Source: an uncultured archaeon
GTDB taxonomy: Archaea > Asgardarchaeota > Thorarchaeia > Thorarchaeales > Thorarchaeaceae
Direction: 5' to 3'
DNA: 32,000 bases
Assembly: GCA_964354495.1 (NCBI GenBank)
Contig: CAYHAA010000006.1
Span: 1-32,000 of the forward strand
Below the pieces are notes generated by a model. The model saw only the letters and a list, made by a program, of their open reading frames with translations. It did not search any database and was not told the origin of the DNA. The translations under genes were made by a program, and so were the position numbers. Positions 1 to 29,445 of the stretch are shown piece after piece (the stretch's first letter is position 1; the number at the start of each line of letters is the position of its first letter).

Positions 1-390
1 TCACAGAATGAAGTTATCCTGTGAGCGTGATAAGGCGTGCACCAATATTGATGGAACCATTCCTGTCAGCATTGGTCTTATGCTCACATGAGGGGCAGAT
101 GAAAGAGTTCTGCCTGGGCCGGACTCCCTTCGCCCCGCATTTCCAACACATGATAGAGGTCCACGACTCTTGAATAATCCTGAATCTTGAGCCTTTCCCG
201 CTTGTGTTCCATCCCAGCTGTGCCAATTGGAGTGCTATTCCTTCGGTGATTCTGGCGAATGCCCAAGAGTGAATCAGTCGTCTGAATCCTCTGCTCTTGC
301 ATGTGATTTTTTGAGCACCCACCCGGATATTCTTCAGACGCCCAATAGCAACAAAGAGGGTGTAACATTCGGATAGTTCAAGAATGTAAG
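1..390 (-). pseudogene. tnpB: TnpB-family RNA-guided nuclease remnant (C-terminal RuvC-II/Zn-finger/RuvC-III part only)
   Basis: The translation SYILELSECYTLFVAIGRLKNIR...IQESWTSIMCWKCG...CPSC...NADRNGSINI aligns closely with the intact TnpB at 13605-15287. There is an in-frame TAG at about 390, with no recognisable homology further upstream. An in-frame TAA at 14-16 sits where the intact copy has Ser (TKSLHSV vs TG*LHSV). Homology runs off the window edge. Confidence 0.9.
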
Positions 391-1325: not shown

Positions 1326-3509
1326 CTGAAACGTCCGATTGAAGTAACATTTCCTCTAGATGAGGTCAATAAGATAGCAGAGATGGAATCAACGGGGTTT
1401 GGCAGACGCCATTATAGGCCGGTCTATGTCATGCATAAATGGTGGGCACGACGACTAGGTTCTGTATTCCGAGCTCTTCTTCTGTACTCACTAGCAGACA
1501 ATGACCTTCAAGACTGGGATGGAAATCCGGAGAGCCTTCGGGATTTCTACTCAAAGGATGTCGATTTTGGGGGAAAGATAGTACTTGATCCCATGATGGG
1601 CGGAGGAACAACGGTAGTTGAGGCATTGAAACTTGGTTGTAAGGTCGTAGGTGGAGACCTCAATCCGGTAGCTTGGTTCATCGTGAAGAAGACTGTGGAG
1701 GATATCGATCCGGCGAAACTCCGCCAGACTCTGATTGATATTGATAGTGAATTGGGGGAGAGTCTTCGAAAGTACTATCGCACATCGTGCCCGGAGTGTG
1801 GGAACGAAGCAGAGGGTATCTACTATTTCTACTGCAAGGATGCCCTTTGCCCAGAATGCGCAAATGTAATTCCACTAATGCGCAATTACTTTCTCTCAAA
1901 ATCGCCATCTGTGCAGGGTGACTATGTCGTATGTCCTCGTTGTTGGAATGTGTTCTTGACAGAAAACGCCAAAAAAACAGCAAAATGCTCCAAATGTGAG
2001 GAGGTTTTCACACCAACGGATAGATCTCTTGTTTCAGGTCGAGCATTCAGATGCGAGAACACCTCATGCAAAAAACATAGCATAGTCAAGACCATCAGAG
2101 ATTCTGGGACAAGACTCAATGAGCGTCTGTATGCTATCGAGTTCTACTGTAGGCATTGTGATGAGTTGGGAAATAAGAAGCTGAGAAATGGGAGAGGGTA
2201 CAAGTCTGCTGATAGTGAAGACCTCGCGTTGTTGGAGTCTGCTCATACAGAGTTCAGAAGAATTCGTGATACATTACCACTGCCAGATGGGGCACTACCC
2301 CTTGGGGTGGAAACTAGGCGTGCATTAAACCACGGGTACTTGAATTTTCAAGATATGTTCAATGCCAGACAGCTCTTGAACCTTGGAAAGATCTATCGGT
2401 GGATTCTGGGTGTTCAAGATTGGAATCTGAGAGAGTTCTTGATTCTCGCCTTCTCAAACTGCCTAAAGTACAACAACATGTTTGCGAAGTACAATGCTAC
2501 AAGAGGATTCATCACAGATATCTTCAGAACACATTCATTTTCGCCATCCCTGTCTCCTGTGGAGGCTAACTGCTATGATACCTCAAAGGGCAGAGGCGCC
2601 TTCACTGCGTTCGTGAAGCTGGTAATTGAGGGGAAGGAGTATTGCCGAGAACCATTTGAGCGAGTCTTTGATGGAAAATCGATGAAAAAAGTCACTCTTC
2701 AGAACAGAATCGATGGAAAACTGGCTCGGAACTATACCGACTTTCATCACGGAGCAAATGTACTCCTCCTATGTGGGTCATCAGAGTCTGTTCCCATTCC
2801 TGACTCAAGTGTTGATGCAGTGGTTACGGATCCGCCATACTCCGGCAATGTGATGTATTCAGAACTGTCCAACTTCTTCTATGTCTGGTTGAGAATTGGA
2901 TTGAAAGAGAGGTATCAGGAATTTAGAACAGAATATGTGCCATGGGTCGATGAAATAATCGAGAACAAGACGCAGGCGAAGGGTCGAGAGGAGTATGTAC
3001 GGGGTCTAACAAAGGTGTTCTCAGAATCGAAACGAGTGTTAATTCAGGATGGCATTCTGGTTTTTACCTTCCATCATACGAGACTGTCAGTATGGGGTGC
3101 GCTCTTAGAGGCCTTACTTCAATCCGGTTTCTATATCACAGCAACATATCCTGTGAGAAGTGAGATGAAGGCGTCAACACACCTTCACGAGATGGAGAAC
3201 ATCGCGTACGACATGGTCTTTGTATGCAGAAAGAAGACTACTAATCCAACAGCAGTCCAGTGGTCTACTCTTCGGGCATGTGTTGTTCAGTCCGTTGCTG
3301 AAACACTCGAAAACCTTCAGAAGAATGGACTATCGACAAGTGAGCAAGACCTCTTTGCTATTGCACTTGGTAAGTTGCTGCAATTCTATTCGAAGTACTA
3401 TCCTAATGTGAAAGACGAAGAACGTGAGGTGCGTCCAGATCTAGCTCTTTCACTGATTGAAGCAGATATCACCGACATTCTTCATAGTGGTTCTATGTGC
3501 AGTTTATAG
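1326..3509 (+). CDS. Adenine-specific DNA methyltransferase with Zn ribbons (DUF1156/COG1743-like)
   Basis: N-terminal HKWWARR motif, SAM-binding LDPMMGGGTT, catalytic VTDPPY followed by YSELSNFFYVWLR, and several CxxC pairs. The first ATG is at 1383, but the family-like N-terminus RPIEVTFPLDEVNKIAEME begins after CTG at 1326. Confidence 0.9.
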   Translation: MKRPIEVTFPLDEVNKIAEMESTGFGRRHYRPVYVMHKWWARRLGSVFRALLLYSLADNDLQDWDGNPESLRDFYSKDVDFGGKIVLDPMMGGGTTVVEALKLGCKVVGGDLNPVAWFIVKKTVEDIDPAKLRQTLIDIDSELGESLRKYYRTSCPECGNEAEGIYYFYCKDALCPECANVIPLMRNYFLSKSPSVQGDYVVCPRCWNVFLTENAKKTAKCSKCEEVFTPTDRSLVSGRAFRCENTSCKKHSIVKTIRDSGTRLNERLYAIEFYCRHCDELGNKKLRNGRGYKSADSEDLALLESAHTEFRRIRDTLPLPDGALPLGVETRRALNHGYLNFQDMFNARQLLNLGKIYRWILGVQDWNLREFLILAFSNCLKYNNMFAKYNATRGFITDIFRTHSFSPSLSPVEANCYDTSKGRGAFTAFVKLVIEGKEYCREPFERVFDGKSMKKVTLQNRIDGKLARNYTDFHHGANVLLLCGSSESVPIPDSSVDAVVTDPPYSGNVMYSELSNFFYVWLRIGLKERYQEFRTEYVPWVDEIIENKTQAKGREEYVRGLTKVFSESKRVLIQDGILVFTFHHTRLSVWGALLEALLQSGFYITATYPVRSEMKASTHLHEMENIAYDMVFVCRKKTTNPTAVQWSTLRACVVQSVAETLENLQKNGLSTSEQDLFAIALGKLLQFYSKYYPNVKDEEREVRPDLALSLIEADITDILHSGSMCSL

Positions 3510-9389: not shown

Positions 9390-9608
9390 ATGACTGATAG
9401 AATATGTAATGCGGAGAGAAACAAGGAACGATGCGGTTGCACATATTCCGGATGCTCAAGACAGGGCTACTGCTGTGACTGCCTGCAGTTCCATTGGAAG
9501 CATCATGAGCTGCCCGGGTGCTTGTTCCCACCGGAAGCGGAGAAGTCCTATGACAGGTCTCTGGAGAATTTCATTGAAGTCTGGAGCAAGAAGCTACGCA
9601 AGAGATGA
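9390..9608 (+). CDS. Small Cys-rich protein (DUF6485-like)
   Basis: Pattern CxCTYxxCSRxGxCCDC..H...LPGCLF...EKSYDRS, recalled as this family. Confidence 0.8.
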   Translation: MTDRICNAERNKERCGCTYSGCSRQGYCCDCLQFHWKHHELPGCLFPPEAEKSYDRSLENFIEVWSKKLRKR

Positions 9609-9665
9609 ATTGTCATACAATAGGTTTAGTAGAGATTACACCGTATTGACTTTGGGTAGAAGTGT

Positions 9666-9899
9666 TTGAGGCAAGTACATGTCGGGCTGCTGCTCATGAT
9701 AGGTAGTGCAATAGTGTGGTTCGTCGCGAATGCGGTCTTATTTGATTACATTGTGAATGTGCTGCATCCTGACTTGGCATTCGGAGAACCGATTTGGGTT
9801 ATAGATCCTCTCGGATTCATGGTCATTTCAGTTCCAACAGGGATTGTCTTCTTTATTGGACTTCTGGCAGTCTTTGATGATATTATTCCAAGAGAATAG
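9666..9899 (+). CDS. Small two-TM membrane protein, hypothetical
   Basis: 77-aa ORF with two hydrophobic segments, filling the gap between flanking genes. TTG start. Confidence 0.55.
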   Translation: MRQVHVGLLLMIGSAIVWFVANAVLFDYIVNVLHPDLAFGEPIWVIDPLGFMVISVPTGIVFFIGLLAVFDDIIPRE

Positions 9900-9958
9900 C
9901 AAGTGGCGGGCGCGACAGGATTTGATTCTGGAATATCTTACTGTATTTGCTTTTTATC

Positions 9959-11176
9959 TCAATTCAATATTACATTAGTTTCCTTAGTCGACACCAAAGC
10001 CATTCTCTTCCTTCGGCGAACTAAAAACATCACACAAAAAACTATGAAAAGTGCTGCTGGTATACTGATGAATACTACAAGGATAGGATCTGACATCCCC
10101 ATCCAAAGACGAGTGCCAAGACTGTTTCCGTGAATGGTTCGATAGATATAACCCCCCCATCCTACCGCCCATCCATGTGTAAGATTGATGAAATCTATTG
10201 CTATTACTCGCGTGTCACCAGGGAAGTCCTGTGAATACCAGTCGAGCCCACCATTTGGAGTATAGGCTATCTCTGTTTCGTCACCAGCAATCCATCCGTT
10301 CTCAGAGTCTAGGAATAGAATGTCAGTGAAGTAAGGTGCTATTGGAGGAGGGAAGGGAGCGTTCCGCGGAGCTGGTTGCTCGATCCAAGTTTCACCATCT
10401 GTCATTTTCGCAAGCCAAGTATCGGCCACAGCCCAAGCTTCAGTATCACTCACGAAAGAAAGTGACCATCCACCACGACTGAAACTCTCTTCCCAGGTTT
10501 CGCATGCATCTTCAGTATGATAAATACCAAAGAATCCAATAGCCCAAGCCTCAGTGGGGGAAACAAGGTGAATCATCCTTAGGGTATCGCTGAATGTCCA
10601 AGATGTGATATTTTGCCATGTCTGCCCACCATCGATGGTCTTGTAGACATCATTCATTGTAGAGGTCCATCCATGAGTTTCGTTGATGAACTTCACAGCT
10701 CCCAAGCCAGCCTGAATATCTATGACCTTGCTTTCATTCCAGGTCATCCCACCATTGGTAGAGTAGACAAGGCCTCCTGTGCCTGTGACCCAGATAGTTT
10801 GCTTGTCGATTATGTCAATTGATCTGAACGTGTGAGAATCCTCGTACAATTGAAGTTGCCAAGAGTCACCACAATCTTTGGTGTTGAGAATTATTCCGCC
10901 GCCCAAACCACTTTTGTTCTGTCCTACTACCCAACCATGAGTGGAGTTTACGAAACGCACGTCACCGAGAATTGCATCCTTTTGAGAGAAGGAATGATTT
11001 AGAATCTGCCAAGAAGCTGTCTCCTGCATTGGTTCAAAAGCCTGTTTCTCTACCATTACCATAGTCGTTGGAAGTGAATCGGTACTATATCCCAATATCA
11101 ATAGGATTAGAACTATCCCTAATACATTGCACTCCATGATTCTCCCTGCAGGTTTCATCATTGTCCTCCAAACCAT
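9959..11176 (-). CDS. Cell-surface Ycf48/BNR-repeat beta-propeller protein with C-terminal membrane anchor
   Basis: Repeated F-x-[ND]-x-THGW and TxDGGxTW (Asp-box) motifs, an N-terminal hydrophobic signal, and a C-terminal TM followed by RRRKR. Confidence 0.88.
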   Translation of the reverse strand: MVWRTMMKPAGRIMECNVLGIVLILLILGYSTDSLPTTMVMVEKQAFEPMQETASWQILNHSFSQKDAILGDVRFVNSTHGWVVGQNKSGLGGGIILNTKDCGDSWQLQLYEDSHTFRSIDIIDKQTIWVTGTGGLVYSTNGGMTWNESKVIDIQAGLGAVKFINETHGWTSTMNDVYKTIDGGQTWQNITSWTFSDTLRMIHLVSPTEAWAIGFFGIYHTEDACETWEESFSRGGWSLSFVSDTEAWAVADTWLAKMTDGETWIEQPAPRNAPFPPPIAPYFTDILFLDSENGWIAGDETEIAYTPNGGLDWYSQDFPGDTRVIAIDFINLTHGWAVGWGGYIYRTIHGNSLGTRLWMGMSDPILVVFISIPAALFIVFCVMFLVRRRKRMALVSTKETNVILN

Positions 11177-11255
11177 TTCTCCTTCGAATTTCCAAACAAC
11201 TTACCTAATCAATTGGCTTAATGAGTACTCTATGAATCAATAATTCAGGACTTGA

Positions 11256-13109
11256 CTATTCGGGTAGCGGACCGCCACCGCCGCCACCACCCGGAAGTGT
11301 GACGTATTGTTGGTCGCTACCAAGATAGATATGGACATCTTGTTCTATTGCTGGATCCCATTCTATAGCATATGCCTGAACATTCACCTGCATTTGAACG
11401 TACCCTTGGAGAAGGCTCCAAGACACGTAGTAGTCTCCATAGTACGTGGGTGTGTAATCAGTGCCAACATAGAAATATGAGGTCCAGTATCCCAGGCTGT
11501 TCTTGTATTTGGCATAGACCTTCACGTAGTCCATTGCAGTCCAGTGATTGGCTCGAACATACCCTGTCACACCATTGACCTGCCATGCGCTGTACGTGAG
11601 CTCCTGTGCATCGATCGGATTGTCCGTGTCTAATGGATCATACCCCCAAGCTATTTCCTGTGAATCACTGAGAATGTCACCATCAGTGCTCAACGCGTTC
11701 GGATTTGTTCCATGAATGAATATCTCATCGTAGTCGCTGAGAGCATCATTGTCGCTGTCTGTATCATTTTGGTCTGTATAATAGACATATTTCTCTTCAG
11801 CATCTATGATGGTATCGCCATCTGAATCGATACCTCCAGCTAGCCAGTCACTTAGATTGGTGTACGTCCTCTGTAATGGATCTTCAATCAGAACGTTATG
11901 ATCAATGTCTTCAATCAATACTTGAGTTGCAAACGAGAGATGGGCTCGACCATTAGCTACAGGAACATCATTAGCATCAAGATGAACCAAAGTCATAATG
12001 ATTGCCCATGGTGAGTTACTTATACCTGAAACAGTGTACCACTCAATTCCCGATGAATAACTCATTGGATCAGCGTTAAGAGTGGTGATGAATTCATGGC
12101 TAGTTCCCATTTGTACAAAGACCTGAGTCGCCCAAGGTTTTTCATTATAGAAAAGGTCTAAGATATTTGTAAAGAGCATACCTAGGCCATAATCTGCAAC
12201 TCTTGTTCCTAGATGCGGTGTGCCTAATGTAATTACTCTACCCACTTCGACACCGTATGACTCCAATGTCTGTCGTTCAGTCATTAGCATCTGTCGGGCT
12301 ATGAGTCCGCCCATGCTATGAGCTACTATATCAATCTGAGTCCCTCTAGGGTGTTCATAAAGCAGATGATTCCTAAAGTTAATGGCATACTCCTCGATAC
12401 TAGCTCCATGTGCTACGTTTACTGAACTATAATCATCAAAATAGCTATAAAAGTAATAACCGTCATAGCCAGCAAAGCTTCCCCAGAGAGTCAATGTATC
12501 AATCAAGTCAAGAAATTGAGAGTTGTTACCATGATAGCCGTGTACAAAATATACATAGCTTTCAAGTGGATGTTTCATTGCATGTTGGACATCAACTATT
12601 TTCGAAGATGGAATGTTCTCTGAGTGTGGATTCATTAACCGTTTGACGTGCCAAGCAGCAAGCAACGCTCCAGCCTCTGCATCAATCATACCTGAGAATC
12701 CATATATACCAAATTCTAGATTGGATGGAGAGTCGCAGGCTAGGAGTATTGATATTTGAGATCGTCGTTCAACCATTGCTTCACTCACATTGACCCAAGG
12801 CAAGACGGTTTGAGAAACCTCCAGACCATCCTCTTGTCCATGTCCAATAAGCACAATAGCATCAGAATGAAGTGGTATCATTTCCAGATAATTCAATGTT
12901 GTTTCTCGAATTACACACTCTTCAGGTTTTAATTCATTGGTAAACGTTTGAGCTGCAAGTTGTATATTACCATCATGACTGTCTGTGTATACAATCCATA
13001 CAGATGGTTGTGTTGTTGTATTCTGAAGCCCTAATATAACCAAGGGAAGAAGTAGGATTATGACAATTGCTAGACTGTTAACACGTATTGATTCTGTTAT
13101 CCTCAACAT
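11256..13109 (-). CDS. Secreted multidomain protein: caspase/CHAT-like domain, alpha/beta-hydrolase (lipase/PGAP1-like), and Ca-binding DxDxD repeats
   Basis: Signal/TM segment; IVLIGHG and ILLACDS; FVHG, DIVAHSMGG and GTPH; DSDGD, DTDSDND and STDGD repeats; Gly7-PLPE tail. Confidence 0.85.
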   Translation of the reverse strand: MLRITESIRVNSLAIVIILLLPLVILGLQNTTTQPSVWIVYTDSHDGNIQLAAQTFTNELKPEECVIRETTLNYLEMIPLHSDAIVLIGHGQEDGLEVSQTVLPWVNVSEAMVERRSQISILLACDSPSNLEFGIYGFSGMIDAEAGALLAAWHVKRLMNPHSENIPSSKIVDVQHAMKHPLESYVYFVHGYHGNNSQFLDLIDTLTLWGSFAGYDGYYFYSYFDDYSSVNVAHGASIEEYAINFRNHLLYEHPRGTQIDIVAHSMGGLIARQMLMTERQTLESYGVEVGRVITLGTPHLGTRVADYGLGMLFTNILDLFYNEKPWATQVFVQMGTSHEFITTLNADPMSYSSGIEWYTVSGISNSPWAIIMTLVHLDANDVPVANGRAHLSFATQVLIEDIDHNVLIEDPLQRTYTNLSDWLAGGIDSDGDTIIDAEEKYVYYTDQNDTDSDNDALSDYDEIFIHGTNPNALSTDGDILSDSQEIAWGYDPLDTDNPIDAQELTYSAWQVNGVTGYVRANHWTAMDYVKVYAKYKNSLGYWTSYFYVGTDYTPTYYGDYYVSWSLLQGYVQMQVNVQAYAIEWDPAIEQDVHIYLGSDQQYVTLPGGGGGGGPLPE

Positions 13110-13498
13110 TTCTTACATGCCTCCACTTATCCATGAGTGTTATACTTAATAAATCGGCCCCTTACTTTGGCAATCGTTGTTGTGTGTTGTTATTGGCTAT
13201 ATTTGAGTAAATGAAACAATAGGAAGTCTATCGTATTGAGGGTGGAATAATTCAAAACCAAATACATCCATTAGCATTGCTTTTGTCGTAATCGTGGATT
13301 CTTTTTCACCTAAATCTTGAAGAAGTTTCGGATTTAAAAGAAGAAACAAACCTCAATAGAACACAAGATATCGGGATACGAATTCCAAGTTCTAATCTTC
13401 GTGTGGCTGGAAAAAGAAACTGCACTTTGAACTTCATATAGCTTTGATAGAGTGTATTCCTTGGATTCGAACCTGCGGCCTGACCTGGTTTTGAGGTG

Positions 13499-13679
13499 GT
13501 GAGTGAACTCCACGACGAAAACTTCTGTGTTCTGCCCTTATCTAGCCTGATGTCACCATCATTCTTTGGCGTTACCCAAAGTGCAGCTAGATTATTGTCG
13601 GCAATCATTGGGATGGAATCCCTCCTGAAGACCTGGCTTCTTTCTCCTGTGATATTACTGGAGCATCACTTCCACTCAC
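13499..13679 (-). ncRNA. Putative omegaRNA (guide scaffold) overlapping the tnpB 3' end
   Basis: Stems visible by eye: GGGAT/ATCCC; ATCTAGC/GCTAGAT enclosing CTTTGG/CCAAAG and TGATG-GTGA-CATCA (GNRA loop); a possible long-range closing helix GTGAGTGGA/TTCACTCAC. The position matches where TnpB omegaRNAs are normally encoded. Confidence 0.55.
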
Positions 13680-15287
13680 AGTGAGTGTTTCCACAGTACT
13701 TGCCACGGCGGAGCCATAATCACTCTTGTCTGTTCCATCGCTGAAGCCGACAAGGCCCATCTGGACAAAGTGAACAGCCGCGGACTCTCCAAGACCTGAT
13801 GCCTGTCCTTTAGTGGAGAGTGGGGACTTCCCTAGAGAAGATGACTTCTTTCGGGCTTTTGGTTGTGAACCTTTTTCTGCTTGAACAGAGTCAGCCCACT
13901 TACCTAGTCCTCTCACAGAGTGCAATGACTTTGTGAGCGTAATGAGGCGTCCGGCAATGTTTATTGCTCCATTCCTGTCTGCATTGGTCTTGTGTCCGCA
14001 TGAAGGACATTTGAAGTAGTTTTGCTTGGGTCTTACTCCCTTTGTGCCGCACTTCCAGCACATGATTGATGTCCAAGCCTCAGGGACTACAATGTATCTC
14101 GAGTCCTTTCCCTCCACAGACCAGCCTCCTTGAGCCAGTCCATGTCTTAGACTCTCGGTGATACGTGCAAAAGTCCAAGAGTGTATCATACCTCTATAGC
14201 TCTTGCCCCTGAAGTTCCCTTTCCGCGCCATATTTCTGATGTTCTTCAAACGACCAATGGCAACGTAGAGCGTGCACTTCGTAGACATATTACCAATGTA
14301 GTCTAGTAAATCTCGAACAAGTACTCGATCATACTCACGAGCAATATTCTCGCGCTTTGACTTGAGCGTCCTCAGTTTTTCTAGAACTCTATCTGCATTC
14401 TGACCACTGCTACGACGCGTGTCGGCTTCTCGTTGAAGATTGGCCACAAGAGTGTCATATTTCTTAATGACTGCAATCTTCTCCTTTTGCCTGAAGAAAC
14501 GAGTTTCGCTTACCTTTGTCGGTGTCACTAGTACGGTGCATGCAGCCTTCTCTATACCGAGATCAATGCCAAGGACAGCTGGTGGATAATGCGAACTAGT
14601 AGAGTCTGGTGCACTCACTCGGACCGCAAAGTTGACCCACCATTTCTTTAATCTGTCTACGTGGATTTGAAGGGCTTTGACTTCACCGCGATTCAACTGG
14701 TTGGTATGAAATGGTGAAACATTCAAGGGAATCAAAAGCCGGTCATGGATATATCGTCCCTCTCGTGTCGAGTCAAGTGCATCTCTCAGGTTGAGCCACC
14801 AGCGAGAGACCTCCGTTGGGGAGTATTCTAATTTGAACCTAGGTGAAAATACCCACCTTGGTATTCGTTGTGTCTGGTTAGATGTGCATGGACGGGAGGG
14901 GTTCCATCCTTTCTTATTCCTGAGCGCTAGATAGCTATCATACATTGAAACGGCTGTCTGTCTACACTCGGTCAGCTCATTCTGTGACATCCGTGGAAAT
15001 CGACTCTTCAGATCGTGTGGCACTGTCAGTCTTTGTGTATACCTCTCTTTGACTTTCAGAGCAGTCATTGTGAGTTTGCTCAGTGTCGTGTCGCAGATTC
15101 CGTTCTTCTTTGGTCCATTTATTAGAGTATCTTCGTTTTGTTCGATTATACCAAGAAATGCTCGTATCGCTCTCGTATCCCTTCCAACAATCTGCCGCAA
15201 CCGCTGTTGAGTCCTCTGTGTCATGATATCCCACCTTATCGGGATCTTGACACTGATTGTTATTCCTCGGGACCGAGCCATCGCCAT
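13605..15287 (-). CDS. tnpB: TnpB-family RNA-guided endonuclease with rearranged (Fanzor/IS607-type) RuvC
   Basis: RuvC-I GIDLG (D at 14562-14564). Canonical RuvC-II position is Gly (VAIGRL, 14253-14255). Alternative Glu in VPEAWTS (14079-14081). CxxC-CxxC Zn finger and RuvC-III NADRN (D at 13977-13979). No adjacent tnpA. Confidence 0.93.
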   Translation of the reverse strand: MAMARSRGITISVKIPIRWDIMTQRTQQRLRQIVGRDTRAIRAFLGIIEQNEDTLINGPKKNGICDTTLSKLTMTALKVKERYTQRLTVPHDLKSRFPRMSQNELTECRQTAVSMYDSYLALRNKKGWNPSRPCTSNQTQRIPRWVFSPRFKLEYSPTEVSRWWLNLRDALDSTREGRYIHDRLLIPLNVSPFHTNQLNRGEVKALQIHVDRLKKWWVNFAVRVSAPDSTSSHYPPAVLGIDLGIEKAACTVLVTPTKVSETRFFRQKEKIAVIKKYDTLVANLQREADTRRSSGQNADRVLEKLRTLKSKRENIAREYDRVLVRDLLDYIGNMSTKCTLYVAIGRLKNIRNMARKGNFRGKSYRGMIHSWTFARITESLRHGLAQGGWSVEGKDSRYIVVPEAWTSIMCWKCGTKGVRPKQNYFKCPSCGHKTNADRNGAINIAGRLITLTKSLHSVRGLGKWADSVQAEKGSQPKARKKSSSLGKSPLSTKGQASGLGESAAVHFVQMGLVGFSDGTDKSDYGSAVASTVETLTVSGSDAPVISQEKEARSSGGIPSQ

Positions 15288-15295
15288 TCGCCTGG

Positions 15296-15308
15296 GTTAT
15301 ATAAACTT
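15296..15308 (-). promoter_or_regulatory. TATA-box-like element proximal to tnpB (copy 1 of a 13-bp direct repeat)
   Basis: GTTATATAAACTT on +, reading AAGTTTATATAAC on -, which resembles BRE plus TTTATATA. Confidence 0.5.
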
Positions 15309-15309
15309 C

Positions 15310-15370
15310 TGACCTGTCTTGGTCATGTGAGTTCACTCCCCTTCTTGTCCGAAGGGGGTCTTTTGAACTC
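15310..15370. other. Double-hairpin module upstream of tnpB (possible element left end or small RNA)
   Basis: TGACC/GGTCA hairpin (15310-15325). GAGTTCA/TGAACTC outer stem (15329-15370) with inner CCCCTTC/GAAGGGG stem. Confidence 0.55.
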
Positions 15371-15389
15371 GTACTAGTATCATATCCAA

Positions 15390-15402
15390 GTTATATAAAC
15401 TT
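15390..15402 (-). promoter_or_regulatory. TATA-box-like element (copy 2 of the 13-bp direct repeat)
   Basis: Identical GTTATATAAACTT 94 bp from copy 1, within the quasi-palindrome AAGTT-ATATA-AACTT. Confidence 0.5.
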
Positions 15403-15497
15403 ATTAAACAAAAATTCTATTATTTCTATTTTCTAAGATTAAAGCATTATGGGTGCTTCTTTTTGAAAATAAAGACTTCCAAATAAGATAGAACTCC

Positions 15498-15531
15498 TTA
15501 TAAATAAAAGAACGACATTATCCCTGAGGAG
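15498..15531 (+). promoter_or_regulatory. Promoter/SD of the 1700-aa gene
   Basis: TTATAAAT at 15498-15505 and GAGGAG at 15526-15531 before TTG 15537. Confidence 0.55.
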
Positions 15532-15536
15532 TTGCT

Positions 15537-18500
15537 TTGGGGCGAAAGATCCGGGAATTTCGACCGAATGAAGTTCTGGTGAATGCAATCTACTCAGGAC
15601 TATCTGCCTTGGTCAGACTTTCATACAAGAGAAAGAACGATTCCACAAACAAGTTCTATGAGAAAACTAGGTCAAACTGGGAGGACGCATGTATTGAATG
15701 GGAGTCTTGTAGGAAACAGGGTTCGCATGACTTCTCTTCTATTCAGAATAAAGAGCCTATTCTGAGGAGATTATATCTTCAGATGCTCTGGTATGGTACG
15801 GTAAGATATGGGAATAAGGAGTTCAAGCGTGTATACAGCTGGAGGGAGGGGACCGTGGGGCCACTCAATGAACTGCTCAACTACATGGGTTCTCAACTCC
15901 GAGATATATTGGTTCCTCGGTATTATTTTCCAGATCCAAACCATTACCAGATAAGAAAATACAGAGATGGTCGACGAGAGATTATTCCCAAGAGCGTAGC
16001 TGATAAAATACCACCTGAGAAAGGTGTGAAAGTGTACCAGAAATCAGGCTATCGAGGAAACTCGAAGAGACCGCGTGTTCTCCTTGCACATCCTTCTCTT
16101 CCAGCCCTTGATTTTGTTGATATGATTCGGGCACACCTCATAGAGCTCTGCCGACAGTGCTTCATTCATGCCGTTCCCCGTCTCGAGTTTCAGAGATACA
16201 TCCGGTTGCTCATCCATAGACTTACCCCCTTCCTCGATTGGGTCTATACACGGGGAAAAGTCGGTCGGAAGAATTTCTATCCCGACGCAGATAGAGAGCT
16301 CCGTAAGATTGTGCTTGAGATTAGGACTCACTTCAGCAACAGGAGCGGAGTAGTTGAAGGAATGAGCAGACAGATAGAGGCGCCTCCTTTCGATTTTGGT
16401 GCTGATTCCCTCAAAGAGAAAGTCAAAGTGATTATGGATTCTTCGGAGAAGAAACACATCCAAGAAAAGGGTAAGGTCATCCTAGACCTAATCCAAGAGG
16501 AAATCATCACAGACACAGAGATTTCGAGATTTCGCGAAGAAATCACCGGAAAGGCGCAGAGAGAGGGGAATGACTGGCACAGAGTGTTGCTCTCAGGACT
16601 CTGTCACCCGAGGTCTCTGAAGGAGGCTGTCTTTGCAGGCGACCAGTTTCTATGGAATCCCTCTGGAATACAATATCTTGCCGAGGTTCCTGTCGTTGGG
16701 AACCATGGCGCTGGAAAGATTGACCTCGTGCTCTTTGCCCGGATGTTGAGAGGTGCAGGACAATACATCTGGTTTCCCGTCATGATTCTTGAAGTGAAGA
16801 CGAAAGAAGCATTCAACTTCAATATATACGGAATGCGACCTAGAACTAGGAAGATGGGTGTCTATGTTCCAACACTTCACTCTTGGAAAGTACCTCTTAC
16901 AGAGCGCGAATGGAATGCAGTATTGGGTTCCAGACCTCCAAAGGCCCATCTTGACCAGTTAGATGTATACGAAGAGATGATACTCTCTGAACTTAACGCT
17001 CTTGTCAAGGATCCTCTGACACCCAAACATGTCTGGAAAGGAGTTGTGACTCTTGATGTTTCACAGGACTATGAGGTGACGAAGAGGAGCTTTGATCAGC
17101 TTATTGGCCAACTGGCTGCGAAGTTGCTGGAGGGCGAGTTCACTGGGCATTGGAAGACACTCAAGTTCGAGGACTCTACTTCCAATGAACTTGCACCACG
17201 CGTTGCCATCACAATGACACCGGCTCAGGGTCCTGTATATCTTCTGAGGAGCATCATTCCCGCTAAGGCGACACAGAACGAGGATCCATTTACTGACCGC
17301 GTGGAGGACGATGTATTCTTCACTCAGTACATCTCTGTTCCCTCTCCGACATCCTCCGGCAAGAGTGCCGCTTGGTTGGCTAAGAACTGGCATCTACTGA
17401 ACCACCTGTCCGAGTTGGCAGATGCCACACCCTCTAGTCCACTATTCCTCTGGATTGACCTCCTTGGTGATTATTCCTCTGAGAGAATGGTCAACATGAG
17501 ATTCGGACTTGAAGCCCTATGGAAGAAGAGGCTAATCACTCAGGCCGAGTTTACCCGACTCAGTGGTTTCCTCAAGCACGTCCATTTTGTCAACCTCCAA
17601 AAAGAAATCGACGACTTGATTCTTATGAGTGGTCCTCTAGGACTAGAGAATCTTCGTGGCAAAATCAAATCCGTTCTTGTCAAGGGATATGGAGAGCGCG
17701 TTGCGATTGTGGATGGTTGGTCGGACCTTGAAACTATGGTGCCAAGACACCGTAGAAGCAATCTGCAAGTACTCGAGCTATCACTGTTAGAAATTCTGAA
17801 GAAACTGGATGAGGTGATATGGGTAGATAGTGGTGTGAATCATGCAGAGATGAGTCGAACCTACCAGCGACCATGTGTGAACCCTCTGTACCATAACTCG
17901 CCGCGAAGACAACTTGTTGACGAGATAATTTGGAACCTTCCTACTGCTCCACGGGAGATAGGATGGATGTCGCCTCAGTACGATGAAACTCGAGTTATTA
18001 TCCAGAATCTTCCCATAGGTAGTCCGCCGTGGATGACTGCGATTCACGTTCCACATCTCAGAGGCTGGACTCGCAGGTTCAGTGCTGCAGCAGCATCGAA
18101 CGCCCCTGCCAAGGCAGATAAGTATGTTGGGACCTTGAACCAGCAACAGAACATGCATGGAAGGTCGTTCCATGGTGCCTCGATTCAGGTTCGAAATGAT
18201 ATGATTAGCAGAGAGAGCCTAGAGGGTGTCAAGAAGAGAGCTTTCAGTCTTATTCCGAGCCTTTGGAAACCGCGGCAAGGGCGGGCAGAAATACTTGGAA
18301 GTGACGATTTTTCCCAGGACTGGAGTGTAGCCTACCATCCCGTGGACAATAATCAGACTCATCCAAGTCTGACCAGCAGATTGCATCTCGACCTGACACA
18401 ACTACCACCTCGTCCTAATAGGCTTGGTAGACGTCATGAAGGAATTCACGTTGAGGCCAATCAGATTACGAGAGGGTGGATTCACAAGGAGCGTGGTGAA

Positions 18501-28479: not shown

Positions 28480-29445
28480 CTAATCGCCGCCCATGAGTGC
28501 CTTAAGACGCTCCATCTCCTGAAGCATTTCAGATTGCAGAGAGCTCTTGCCATCTGTTGATTTCGGAGGGGTTCCACCGAGTATCGCACTGCCAAGACCC
28601 GAACCACCAGGAGGGTTAGCACTGGGAGCAACACCGCTTGGAGTACCCCCACTAGGAGGGCCACCACTCGGAACACCACCACCTGGAGGACCACCTACAG
28701 GAGCACCACCACTGGGAACTCCACCTCTTGGCGGGCCACCGCTCGGAGGACCACCAGCAGGAGGACCGCCGCTGGGCGGGCCAGCACTCGGAGGACCACC
28801 AGCAGGAGGACCACCACTCGGTCTGCCTGGGCTTACTGTACCCGGTACACCTACACTTGAAATGGGTGTTTCACCCAATTCGTCAGCTTCTACGGTGGTA
28901 CCAGACATTGCTGCGAGTTTTTGAAGATAGTCTGATCGCGCTCTGTCAACCGCCGAAGAAGTGTCAACTATGGCTTTGAGTTCTTGGTCCTTGGCGACTG
29001 CATCTTGAACTGCAGCAAGTCGGTCTTCATAGACCTGAGCAACCTTGGACTTCATTGATTCATCTAGGTCACCCTGTTGTGCATAGTAGTCCACTGCAAC
29101 GAGTGCTTGTTGAATTGCGTTTTCTTCAACCTTAAGAAACACGAGAGCTTCTGCTGGAGTCTTCAGAAACTTGAGTTTCTTGACACCAGCCATGCCTGCA
29201 GAAACATCACCTGTCGAAGCGATTATCCTCTTGATTCCCTCATCTACTCCAGCGCCGCCAGAAACACGGCGACCACGATGTGCCAGTACAAGAATGATTA
29301 CGAGGAGGGGGGATACTGTGATGATGAAGAACCATGCCTCAGGGCCAAATGGAATTCCCAAGGGTATAAAGAAGTCAGATATGGGTCGGAATAGTCCAAC
29401 TACGAATTCTGTGAAGGCTTGGTAAATTGTTTGCAATTGGCTCAC
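28480..29445 (-). CDS. Membrane-anchored helical protein with Pro/Gly pentapeptide repeats and a C-terminal amphipathic helix
   Basis: N-terminal TM, helical middle region, about 14 xGGPP-like units, and terminal LQSEMLQEMERLK. Confidence 0.8.
   Translation of the reverse strand: MSQLQTIYQAFTEFVVGLFRPISDFFIPLGIPFGPEAWFFIITVSPLLVIILVLAHRGRRVSGGAGVDEGIKRIIASTGDVSAGMAGVKKLKFLKTPAEALVFLKVEENAIQQALVAVDYYAQQGDLDESMKSKVAQVYEDRLAAVQDAVAKDQELKAIVDTSSAVDRARSDYLQKLAAMSGTTVEADELGETPISSVGVPGTVSPGRPSGGPPAGGPPSAGPPSGGPPAGGPPSGGPPRGGVPSGGAPVGGPPGGGVPSGGPPSGGTPSGVAPSANPPGGSGLGSAILGGTPPKSTDGKSSLQSEMLQEMERLKALMGGD
28600..28830. repeat. Degenerate 15-bp coding tandem repeat (xGGPP)
   Basis: Includes an exact 26-nt duplicate CTCGGAGGACCACCAGCAGGAGGACC at 28742-28767 and 28787-28812. 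Confidence 0.85.

Follow-up and report, generated by a model that had tools for sequence, protein, structure and literature searches.

A 32,000-nucleotide (nt) stretch of DNA from an uncultured archaeon of the family Thorarchaeaceae (Asgardarchaeota; assembly GCA_964354495.1, contig CAYHAA010000006.1, positions 1 to 32,000), referred to here as the window, carries a giant gene at 15537..20639 on the forward strand that encodes a protein of 1700 amino acids (aa). Together with a divergent TnpB-like gene and its omega-RNA-like region, the giant gene forms a two-gene module that occurs in multiple copies, is patchily distributed and sometimes pseudogenised, and resides at tRNA genes for which both occupied and empty sites are found. 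The giant protein is the "aCas1" of TnpB-containing Asgard mobile elements, and its Cas1-like domain probably serves as an integrase at tRNA genes.

The window locus is assigned to the aCas1-TnpB kind because an exact GTTCACTCA and a variable stretch are located downstream of its tnpB gene. Passages of Altae-Tran et al. (2023; PMC10691335) devoted to such loci describe two Asgard groups (Cas1H-Asgard-1/-2) in which TnpB is accompanied by "Asgard Cas1s (aCas1s)" instead of TnpA, propose aCas1 as the transposase, and report that downstream of tnpB a conserved T and a conserved GTTCACTCA enclose a hypervariable stretch. The Asgard host, the giant Cas1-like gene beside TnpB, the GTTCACTCA end, the flanking repeats and the proposed transposon nature are all shared, and the window locus represents another copy with no essential difference. 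An earlier note on this DNA, prepared from its letters alone, had regarded the protein as undescribed, a view that does not hold given its identity with the aCas1 of those published passages.

Module copies and their insertion at tRNA genes

The genome to which the window belongs (G000; 3.3 Mb, 97.7% complete) contains eight copies of the giant gene, and at seven of these eight loci a TnpB-like gene or a remnant of one occupies the same divergent position. The pairing is also observed in most of 23 loci elsewhere, with three exceptions among those where sufficient upstream DNA is available, and both TnpB groups retain it in many genomes. The window copy and a paralogous copy (C27) share DNA similarity that is bounded by the two stop codons. 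Across 251 Asgard genomes, a profile of the N-terminal 870 residues of the giant protein matched 36 of 59 genomes of its own family and 2 of 10 of a second family, with no match in 26 other Asgard families; even within the window's own genus, the gene is present in only 9 of 15 genomes. In-frame stops in some of the copies recovered in this survey identify them as pseudogenised.

The clearest insertion is that of the C27 paralogue, a 7.2-kilobase (kb) insert in a tRNA-Gly gene that carries tnpB and the giant gene only. An intact tRNA-Gly(TCC) abuts its tnpB end, and a 45-nt copy of tRNA positions 31-75, 87% identical, directly follows the giant stop codon. The corresponding empty site is preserved in a related genome (G146), in which an intact tRNA is followed by the flank found beyond the displaced fragment in G000. 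Two further genomes carry other inserts at the same tRNA-Gly site: a 1.24-kb insert beginning with the same end motif in G134, and a 3.46-kb insert containing a BNR-like gene and a DUF7379 hydrolase gene in G116. Because the window's genome, in which 16 TnpB-type matches were detected, yielded no Y1 transposase (TnpA), aCas1 is the only candidate recombinase in the 7.2-kb insert. A Pfam-detectable Cas1 (PF01867, E <= 10) is likewise missing from this genome, which also speaks for the integrase reading.

In the window, the module lies within a 10.8-kb island (9926..20742) that comprises a BNR/YCF48-like gene (9959-11176, reverse strand), a DUF7379/alpha-beta hydrolase gene (11256-13109, reverse strand), tnpB and the giant gene. 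The island is absent from this site in at least six congeners (including G191:C16, G158:C72, G258:C116, G134:C63 and G116:C5), where the left flank, reaching 9925 in the closest of them (G191) and ~9590-9925 in the others, abuts tRNA-Arg and aIF2B. Its left edge carries 21 nt left over from the 3' end of a tRNA-Arg (9905..9925, reverse strand; 20/21 identical), at the position of which G191 has a whole tRNA on the same strand; its right edge is marked by an intact tRNA-Arg(TCG) (20782..20859, forward strand; ARAGORN and Rfam) located 143 nt after the giant stop codon. In five loci, the tRNA 3' end is 79-128 nt from the tnpB end. The earlier note had pointed to tRNA-adjacent islands and TnpB as neighbourhoods worth searching, aptly, as both were found at giant loci.

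Several further observations concern these insertion sites. Between the same two flanking genes, tRNA-Arg occurs in either orientation among genomes of the genus, which suggests repeated replacement or inversion at a hotspot. The 1.9 kb between tRNA-Arg and aIF2B in the window (20864-22776), with open reading frames (ORFs) at 21145-22131 and 22085-22555 that belong to no known family, appears to be a second insertion on the 3' side of the tRNA, because the gap measures 30-120 nt in most congeners. The BNR/YCF48-like and DUF7379 pair recurs at window positions 9959-13109, at L087 382-3653 and as a paralogous pair at G000:C7:4795-7775; in G116 the pair is an insert of its own, 3.46 kb long, which lies between tRNA-Gly half repeats and lacks a recombinase gene. 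The pair looks like a mobile cargo cassette. Upstream of tRNA-Gly in another locus (L086 150-370, G134:C188), three tandem scars were identified, each consisting of a tRNA anticodon-arm remnant (...GCCTTCCA) joined to CTGACC..., a motif also present upstream of tnpB at window positions 15309-15317; these scars may record repeated insertions.

Domain architecture of the giant protein

The giant gene is a single uninterrupted frame with a TTG start, as the earlier note had it, and the start assignment is supported because homologues begin at the same MGRK... residues. Approximately 110 homologues of 1450-1900 aa were found, every named one from Thorarchaeota, and a profile of the N-terminal 870 residues, run against 1.84 billion proteins, retrieved no more than 187 cluster representatives. 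Searches of Pfam, NCBIfam and PADLOC with the whole protein returned no meaningful family match, so that describing it as unknown by sequence was fair; a PDB sequence-profile search with the whole family likewise returned nothing. All domains are under purifying selection relative to a 73%-identical paralogue, with ratios of nonsynonymous to synonymous substitution rates (dN/dS) of 0.11-0.24 (0.17 for the whole gene). Residue conservation was scored on an alignment of 34 diverse homologues sharing 23-74% identity.

The N-terminal region (aa 1-275; 15537..16361, forward strand) is predicted to be a Cas1-like catalytic, helical domain. An AlphaFold2 model of residues 1-870 reached a predicted local distance difference test score (pLDDT) of 86.5 and a predicted template modelling score of 0.85. 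When residues 2-256 were compared with 48,161 PDB chains using VIA-align, the top matches were about ten Cas1 and casposase entries (Z 12.8-9.5), led by 8flj_A (Z 12.8; root-mean-square deviation 3.9, 178 residues aligned), 4n06_B (12.2) and 4w8k_A (12.0), with casposase 6opm_A at 10.7; all map to the C-terminal alpha-helical catalytic domain of these entries. The candidate catalytic residues E73, R98, N111 (PLNALLNY), H185, D192 and D195 (LDFVDMIR) are invariant or nearly so and are collinear, with similar spacing, with the invariant E156/R181/N191/H222/D234/E237 of aligned Asgard Cas1; E73, H185, D192 and D195 stand for the metal-binding Glu, His and Asp/Glu that Cas1 proteins conserve. The segment that the earlier note had described as a basic N-terminus (aa 1-270) is in fact the best-conserved, folded part of the protein, and its Cas1-like nature had been overlooked.

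The second domain (aa 326-525; 16512..17111, forward strand) is a probable RecB-type PD-(D/E)xK nuclease domain, whose motifs were already recognised in the earlier note at their exact positions: H348 (16578), E383 (16683), D396 (16722), E419-x-K421 (16791-16799) and Q474...Y478 (16956-16970). No variation is seen at G344, H348, D396, K421, Q474 and Y478; conservation at E383 and E419 is at least 90%. Residues 272-565 matched MGME1 (5zyt_A) with a VIA Z of 7.9, at rank 50 in a list crowded by matches of other domains; sequences of the nuclease domain gave no Pfam match (26 members) and no PDB sequence-profile match. Since aa 326-560 contain a single cysteine (C355), the nuclease lacks the four-cysteine Fe-S cluster of the Cas4 type.

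The third domain (aa 590-850; 17304..18086, forward strand) adopts a RecA fold with a degenerate Walker A motif, according to both Foldseek and VIA comparisons. Foldseek searches against the PDB gave E-values of ~1e-4 to Rad51 paralogues, RadA, DnaB and Elp456, and VIA gave Z 12.2-10 to Elp456, BCDX2, KaiC, Twinkle and RadB. The P-loop-like SPTSSGKS (aa 603-610), ...WIDLLGDY (aa 639-646) and IVDGW (aa 724-728) that the earlier note had read are present; among their residues, S603, S606, G608, W639, D641 and L642 do not vary, and most homologues keep D726. By contrast, only the closest relatives retain K609, the lysine of Walker A, which is replaced elsewhere by N, E, V, I, T, R or G. Thus, the "HerA/FtsK-like ATPase" of the earlier note stands as a degenerate, RecA-like P-loop fold but not as to its kinship, which appears to lie nearer to RadA, Rad51 paralogues, KaiC, DnaB and Elp456: HerA and FtsK are not among the structural neighbours listed for this domain, which include FlaH, RadA/RadB and Twinkle/DnaB. 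With K609 not conserved and the nearest listed folds other than HerA/FtsK, the designation "translocase" is unsupported. The predicted fold contains the RecA-like core and, probably, the PD-(D/E)xK core, and the nuclease motifs are conserved among homologues, so that the findings which the earlier note had named as refuting it did not arise.

The C-terminal half is modelled well at the local level but yielded nothing below an E-value of 1e-3 in Foldseek searches against the PDB, and uncharacterised proteins only among AlphaFold database clusters. Within it, a helical segment (aa 1003-1180; 18543..19076, forward strand) shows a weak likeness to Cas1, with VIA Z 5.2-5.7 to nine Cas1 entries, which is below the noise level, and with hhalign comparisons that were not significant against either the N-terminal domain or Cas1; it is possibly a second, degenerate Cas1-like domain. 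The remaining conserved, beta-rich C-terminal domains (aa 1196-1700; 19122..20639, forward strand) are modelled with pLDDT mostly >85, have no PDB match with Z >5 and show dN/dS of 0.15-0.16. ESM Atlas feature searches with aa 1-275 and aa 1195-1700 gave no usable match.

This architecture bears comparison with several known systems. Cas1 and Cas4-Cas1 fusions share with the giant protein the catalytic helical fold, the collinear E/R/N/H/D/E-type residues and a RecB-family nuclease in the same chain; the giant protein differs in lacking a Pfam Cas1 match, the N-terminal beta domain and the Fe-S cysteine cluster, in placing the Cas1-like part before the nuclease, and in being five times larger. 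NurA-HerA and similar nuclease plus HerA/FtsK pairs likewise combine a nuclease with a domain of the ASCE P-loop fold, but here the nuclease is of the PD-(D/E)xK type rather than NurA, and the domain with the P-loop resembles RecA/RadA/KaiC and has a degenerate Walker A. Large Cas1-containing ORFs in another genome (G041) were considered as relatives of the giant protein and rejected, as they are DEAD-helicase-Cas1 fusions beside a RAMP gene. Such fusions of ~1350 aa, combining DEAD/Helicase_C domains with a Pfam-detectable Cas1, were observed in G041 (L032 7035-11126 and L033 6766-10776, both reverse strand) in an ARAMP-like locus and constitute an unrelated family.

TnpB partner, omega-RNA-like region and element ends

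The TnpB-like gene (13605..15287, reverse strand; 560 aa) is located directly upstream of the giant gene in divergent orientation. Its product matches the Pfam family Cas12f1-like_TNB (1.2e-12) and, weakly, OrfB_IS605, and it contains an intact RuvC D/E/D triad and a zinc finger, read as GIDLG...E...CxxC...CxxC...NADRN. In the window's genome, the tnpB 3' end with the omega-RNA region also occurs alone, as copies or fragments that have no giant gene close by (C24, C4, C7, C15 and C43); C43 carries a tandem pair of them, and C15 an open frame of 593 aa. The window itself begins within another TnpB copy (1-322; TNB-domain match at 44-217, reverse strand), with positions 1-199 showing 74% DNA similarity to tnpB at 13913-14112.

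An omega-RNA-like structured region together with the element end (13475..13650, reverse strand) comprises a scaffold, a 12-nt variable stretch (13509-13520, preceded by ...AGAAGT), the exact GTTCACTCA (13508-13500) 97 nt past the tnpB stop codon, and a conserved terminus of ~25 nt; the tnpB-side element terminus carries GTTCACTCAC plus ~25 nt. The same layout of variable stretch and GTTCACTCA is found in C27, C17, L011, L065 and L075. RNAalifold analysis of nine genomic copies of the tnpB 3' end and downstream DNA predicted 28 base pairs, and we infer an omega-RNA-like RNA because 17 of them show compensatory double changes. Synonymous divergence is also depressed in the tail of tnpB that overlaps this region, and a 100-aa ORF at 13306-13608 overlapping it is probably spurious.

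The variable stretch is nearly identical in six of the nine genomic copies and is similar to the inner copy of the inverted repeat, upstream of tnpB; by eye, neither the adjacent tRNA nor the empty site matches it convincingly. Given this near-identity and likeness to the inner repeat, we do not claim that it is a written spacer. No CRISPR array was found in the window, and no tandem repeat is present near the module.

The divergent intergenic region between tnpB and the giant gene (15288..15536) contains the end motif in inverted orientation (15309-15341, with GTTCACTCC at 15331-15339), a repeated TATA-like box (15296-15308 and 15390-15402), a conserved hairpin with compensatory changes between loci (15329-15370), and TTATAAATA ~30 nt ahead of the giant start. 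These features are kept in all seven examined loci of the subgroup with TnpB proteins of 550-580 aa. The similarity between the tnpB-side end and the inner inverted copy exceeded chance in a permutation test (p 0.006), and the first 300 nt downstream of the giant gene contain no copy of the end motif. The hairpin, with GAGTTCA...TGAACTC around a GC-rich inner stem (within 15309-15370), is a candidate element end, operator or RNA.

Transcription of the locus is hinted at by two short contigs of a metatranscriptome (X13) with 98-99% identity to 15112-15351 and 18770-18948, a hint that is weak because DNA carry-over is possible; the omega-RNA region had no coverage in this metatranscriptome. Genes near the giant gene are archaeal and include those for a tRNA-splicing endonuclease, aIF2B and a RIO kinase. 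Elsewhere in the window, positions 1383-3509 encode a protein of 708 aa in which N6_N4 DNA methylase domains occur together with methyltransferase domains of the UPF0020 type, and tandem repeats of 15/30/45 nt at 28604-28821, inside an ORF at 28480-29445 on the reverse strand, encode a proline/glycine-rich, extensin-like stretch.

Role of the giant protein and alternative explanations

As the integrase of the element, which is its most likely role, the giant protein would use the N-terminal Cas1-like domain (E73, H185, D192/D195) to join the element to tRNA genes. The RecB-type domain (D396, E419, K421) may cut or trim DNA ends, as Cas4 and TnsA do on behalf of their partners, while the RecA-fold domain, with its family-wide degenerate Walker A, would contribute to assembly or DNA binding and not to ATP-driven translocation. 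The 830-residue C-terminal half, perhaps including the second degenerate Cas1-like domain, could recognise the target or the element ends. TnpB and its omega-RNA would most likely help the element to be retained or to home, as happens in IS200/IS605.

The module resembles IS200/IS605 and IS607 elements in that TnpB is accompanied by a structured RNA, which overlaps the 3' end of its gene and extends as far as the end of the element, and in the many decayed end fragments; it differs in that a 1700-aa divergent Cas1-like protein replaces TnpA and tRNA genes are the targets. With casposons it shares a presumed transposase of the Cas1 family and insertion at the 3' regions of tRNA genes. Casposons differ in possessing a family B polymerase, whereas the 7.2-kb C27 module holds only tnpB and the giant gene, around which no terminal inverted repeats were found; moreover, the casposon target duplication of 14-15 base pairs contrasts with the 45-nt, non-identical tRNA half at C27. 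As regards Cas1 proteins of CRISPR adaptation, the window contains no CRISPR array, and no search for cas2 was made.

Several results weigh against an integrase role. By sequence, the N-terminal domain is not recognisable as Cas1: no Pfam match was obtained at E <= 1, and hhalign against 17 Asgard Cas1 proteins gave E 0.25. The fold match concerns a helical domain, for which Z values below ~13 can be generic, and the N-terminal beta-sandwich domain of Cas1 is absent from the model, which starts at the equivalent of Cas1 residue ~83-114. The tnpB unit has its own imperfect inverted repeat of 25-30 nt ending in GTTCACTC(A/C)C, with the giant gene lying outside, and the similarities of TnpB and giant protein between copies are incongruent (69% versus 37% in one pair, 62% versus 73% in another). 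At the tRNA-Gly site, the inserts of G134 and G116 have no aCas1 gene, so that integration may proceed in trans or by another enzyme. In addition, the displaced repeat copy at this site is ancestral-like, while the working tRNA has a newcomer 3' half and compensating acceptor changes, a pattern that looks like attP x attB recombination and not like the fresh target duplication of a Cas1 or casposase.

Because of these att-like repeats seemingly brought in by the insert, the aCas1-less inserts, the repeats of the tnpB unit and the incongruence, the giant protein may not be the recombinase, or not the sole one. The element would then be moved in trans, either by another integrase or through the inverted repeats of the tnpB unit, and the giant protein would act in replication or repair of an excised form or in end processing. 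We regard this explanation as unlikely: the 7.2-kb insert encodes nothing besides TnpB and aCas1 in a genome devoid of Y1 TnpA, the Cas1-like fold retains its conserved acidic and histidine residues, and the pairing is maintained in two TnpB groups and in numerous genomes.

A defence role for the giant protein, which the earlier note had considered likely, is unlikely in view of the multi-copy, mobile-element behaviour and the insertion at tRNA genes. In its fuller form, a defence system would reside on tRNA-linked islands, with the giant protein and the RNA-guided TnpB acting jointly and the former sensing or degrading DNA that invades the cell. The combination of a nuclease, a P-loop-fold domain and an RNA-guided nuclease would suit such a system, as would a patchily distributed island beside a tRNA. 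We nevertheless hold it to be very improbable, since a genome carries eight paralogous copies each with its own TnpB, the two-gene insert is bounded by tRNA repeats and has an empty counterpart in a congener, PADLOC gave no match, the family does not conserve the Walker A lysine, the domain with the strongest conservation resembles an integrase, and many decayed end fragments are scattered across the genome. That the protein is a vertically inherited Thorarchaeota housekeeping factor, for example in chromosome maintenance, which merely attracts TnpB insertions upstream, is barely conceivable: full-length conservation and purifying selection would fit, but the gene is missing from six of the fifteen genomes of its own genus and from the syntenic site in congeners, one genome holds eight divergent copies, some copies are pseudogenised, and presence and absence at orthologous sites contradict it.

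On a speculative and improbable reading, aCas1 would be a single-chain Cas1-plus-Cas4-like "adaptation" enzyme beside TnpB, the ancestor of Cas12, that installs the element as well as integrase-less cassettes, for instance the BNR/hydrolase pair, at the 3' ends of tRNAs and other genes, adding a copy of the target end each time. Were this true, the module would represent a present-day counterpart of the transition that led from a casposon and TnpB to type V CRISPR, and aCas1 would be the enzyme behind the cassette arrays in these genomes.

The primary description of aCas1 is reportedly that of Makarova et al. from 2020 (CRISPR J 3:156). To the class as known by computation, the window copy adds little; beyond the passages of PMC10691335 on these loci, the present analysis contributes the domain map, the tRNA-Gly and tRNA-Arg targets with their empty sites, the omega-RNA covariation and the inverted repeats of the tnpB unit, parts of which may overlap with the 2020 description. 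Among the archaea that stand closest to eukaryotes, the aCas1-TnpB elements unite within just two genes a relative of Cas1, a nuclease resembling Cas4 and the ancestor of Cas12. The domain map, the candidate residues and the clean pairs of occupied and empty sites at tRNA-Gly and tRNA-Arg provide substrates and mutants with which biochemistry can address whether a Cas1 relative is able to integrate a TnpB element site-specifically.

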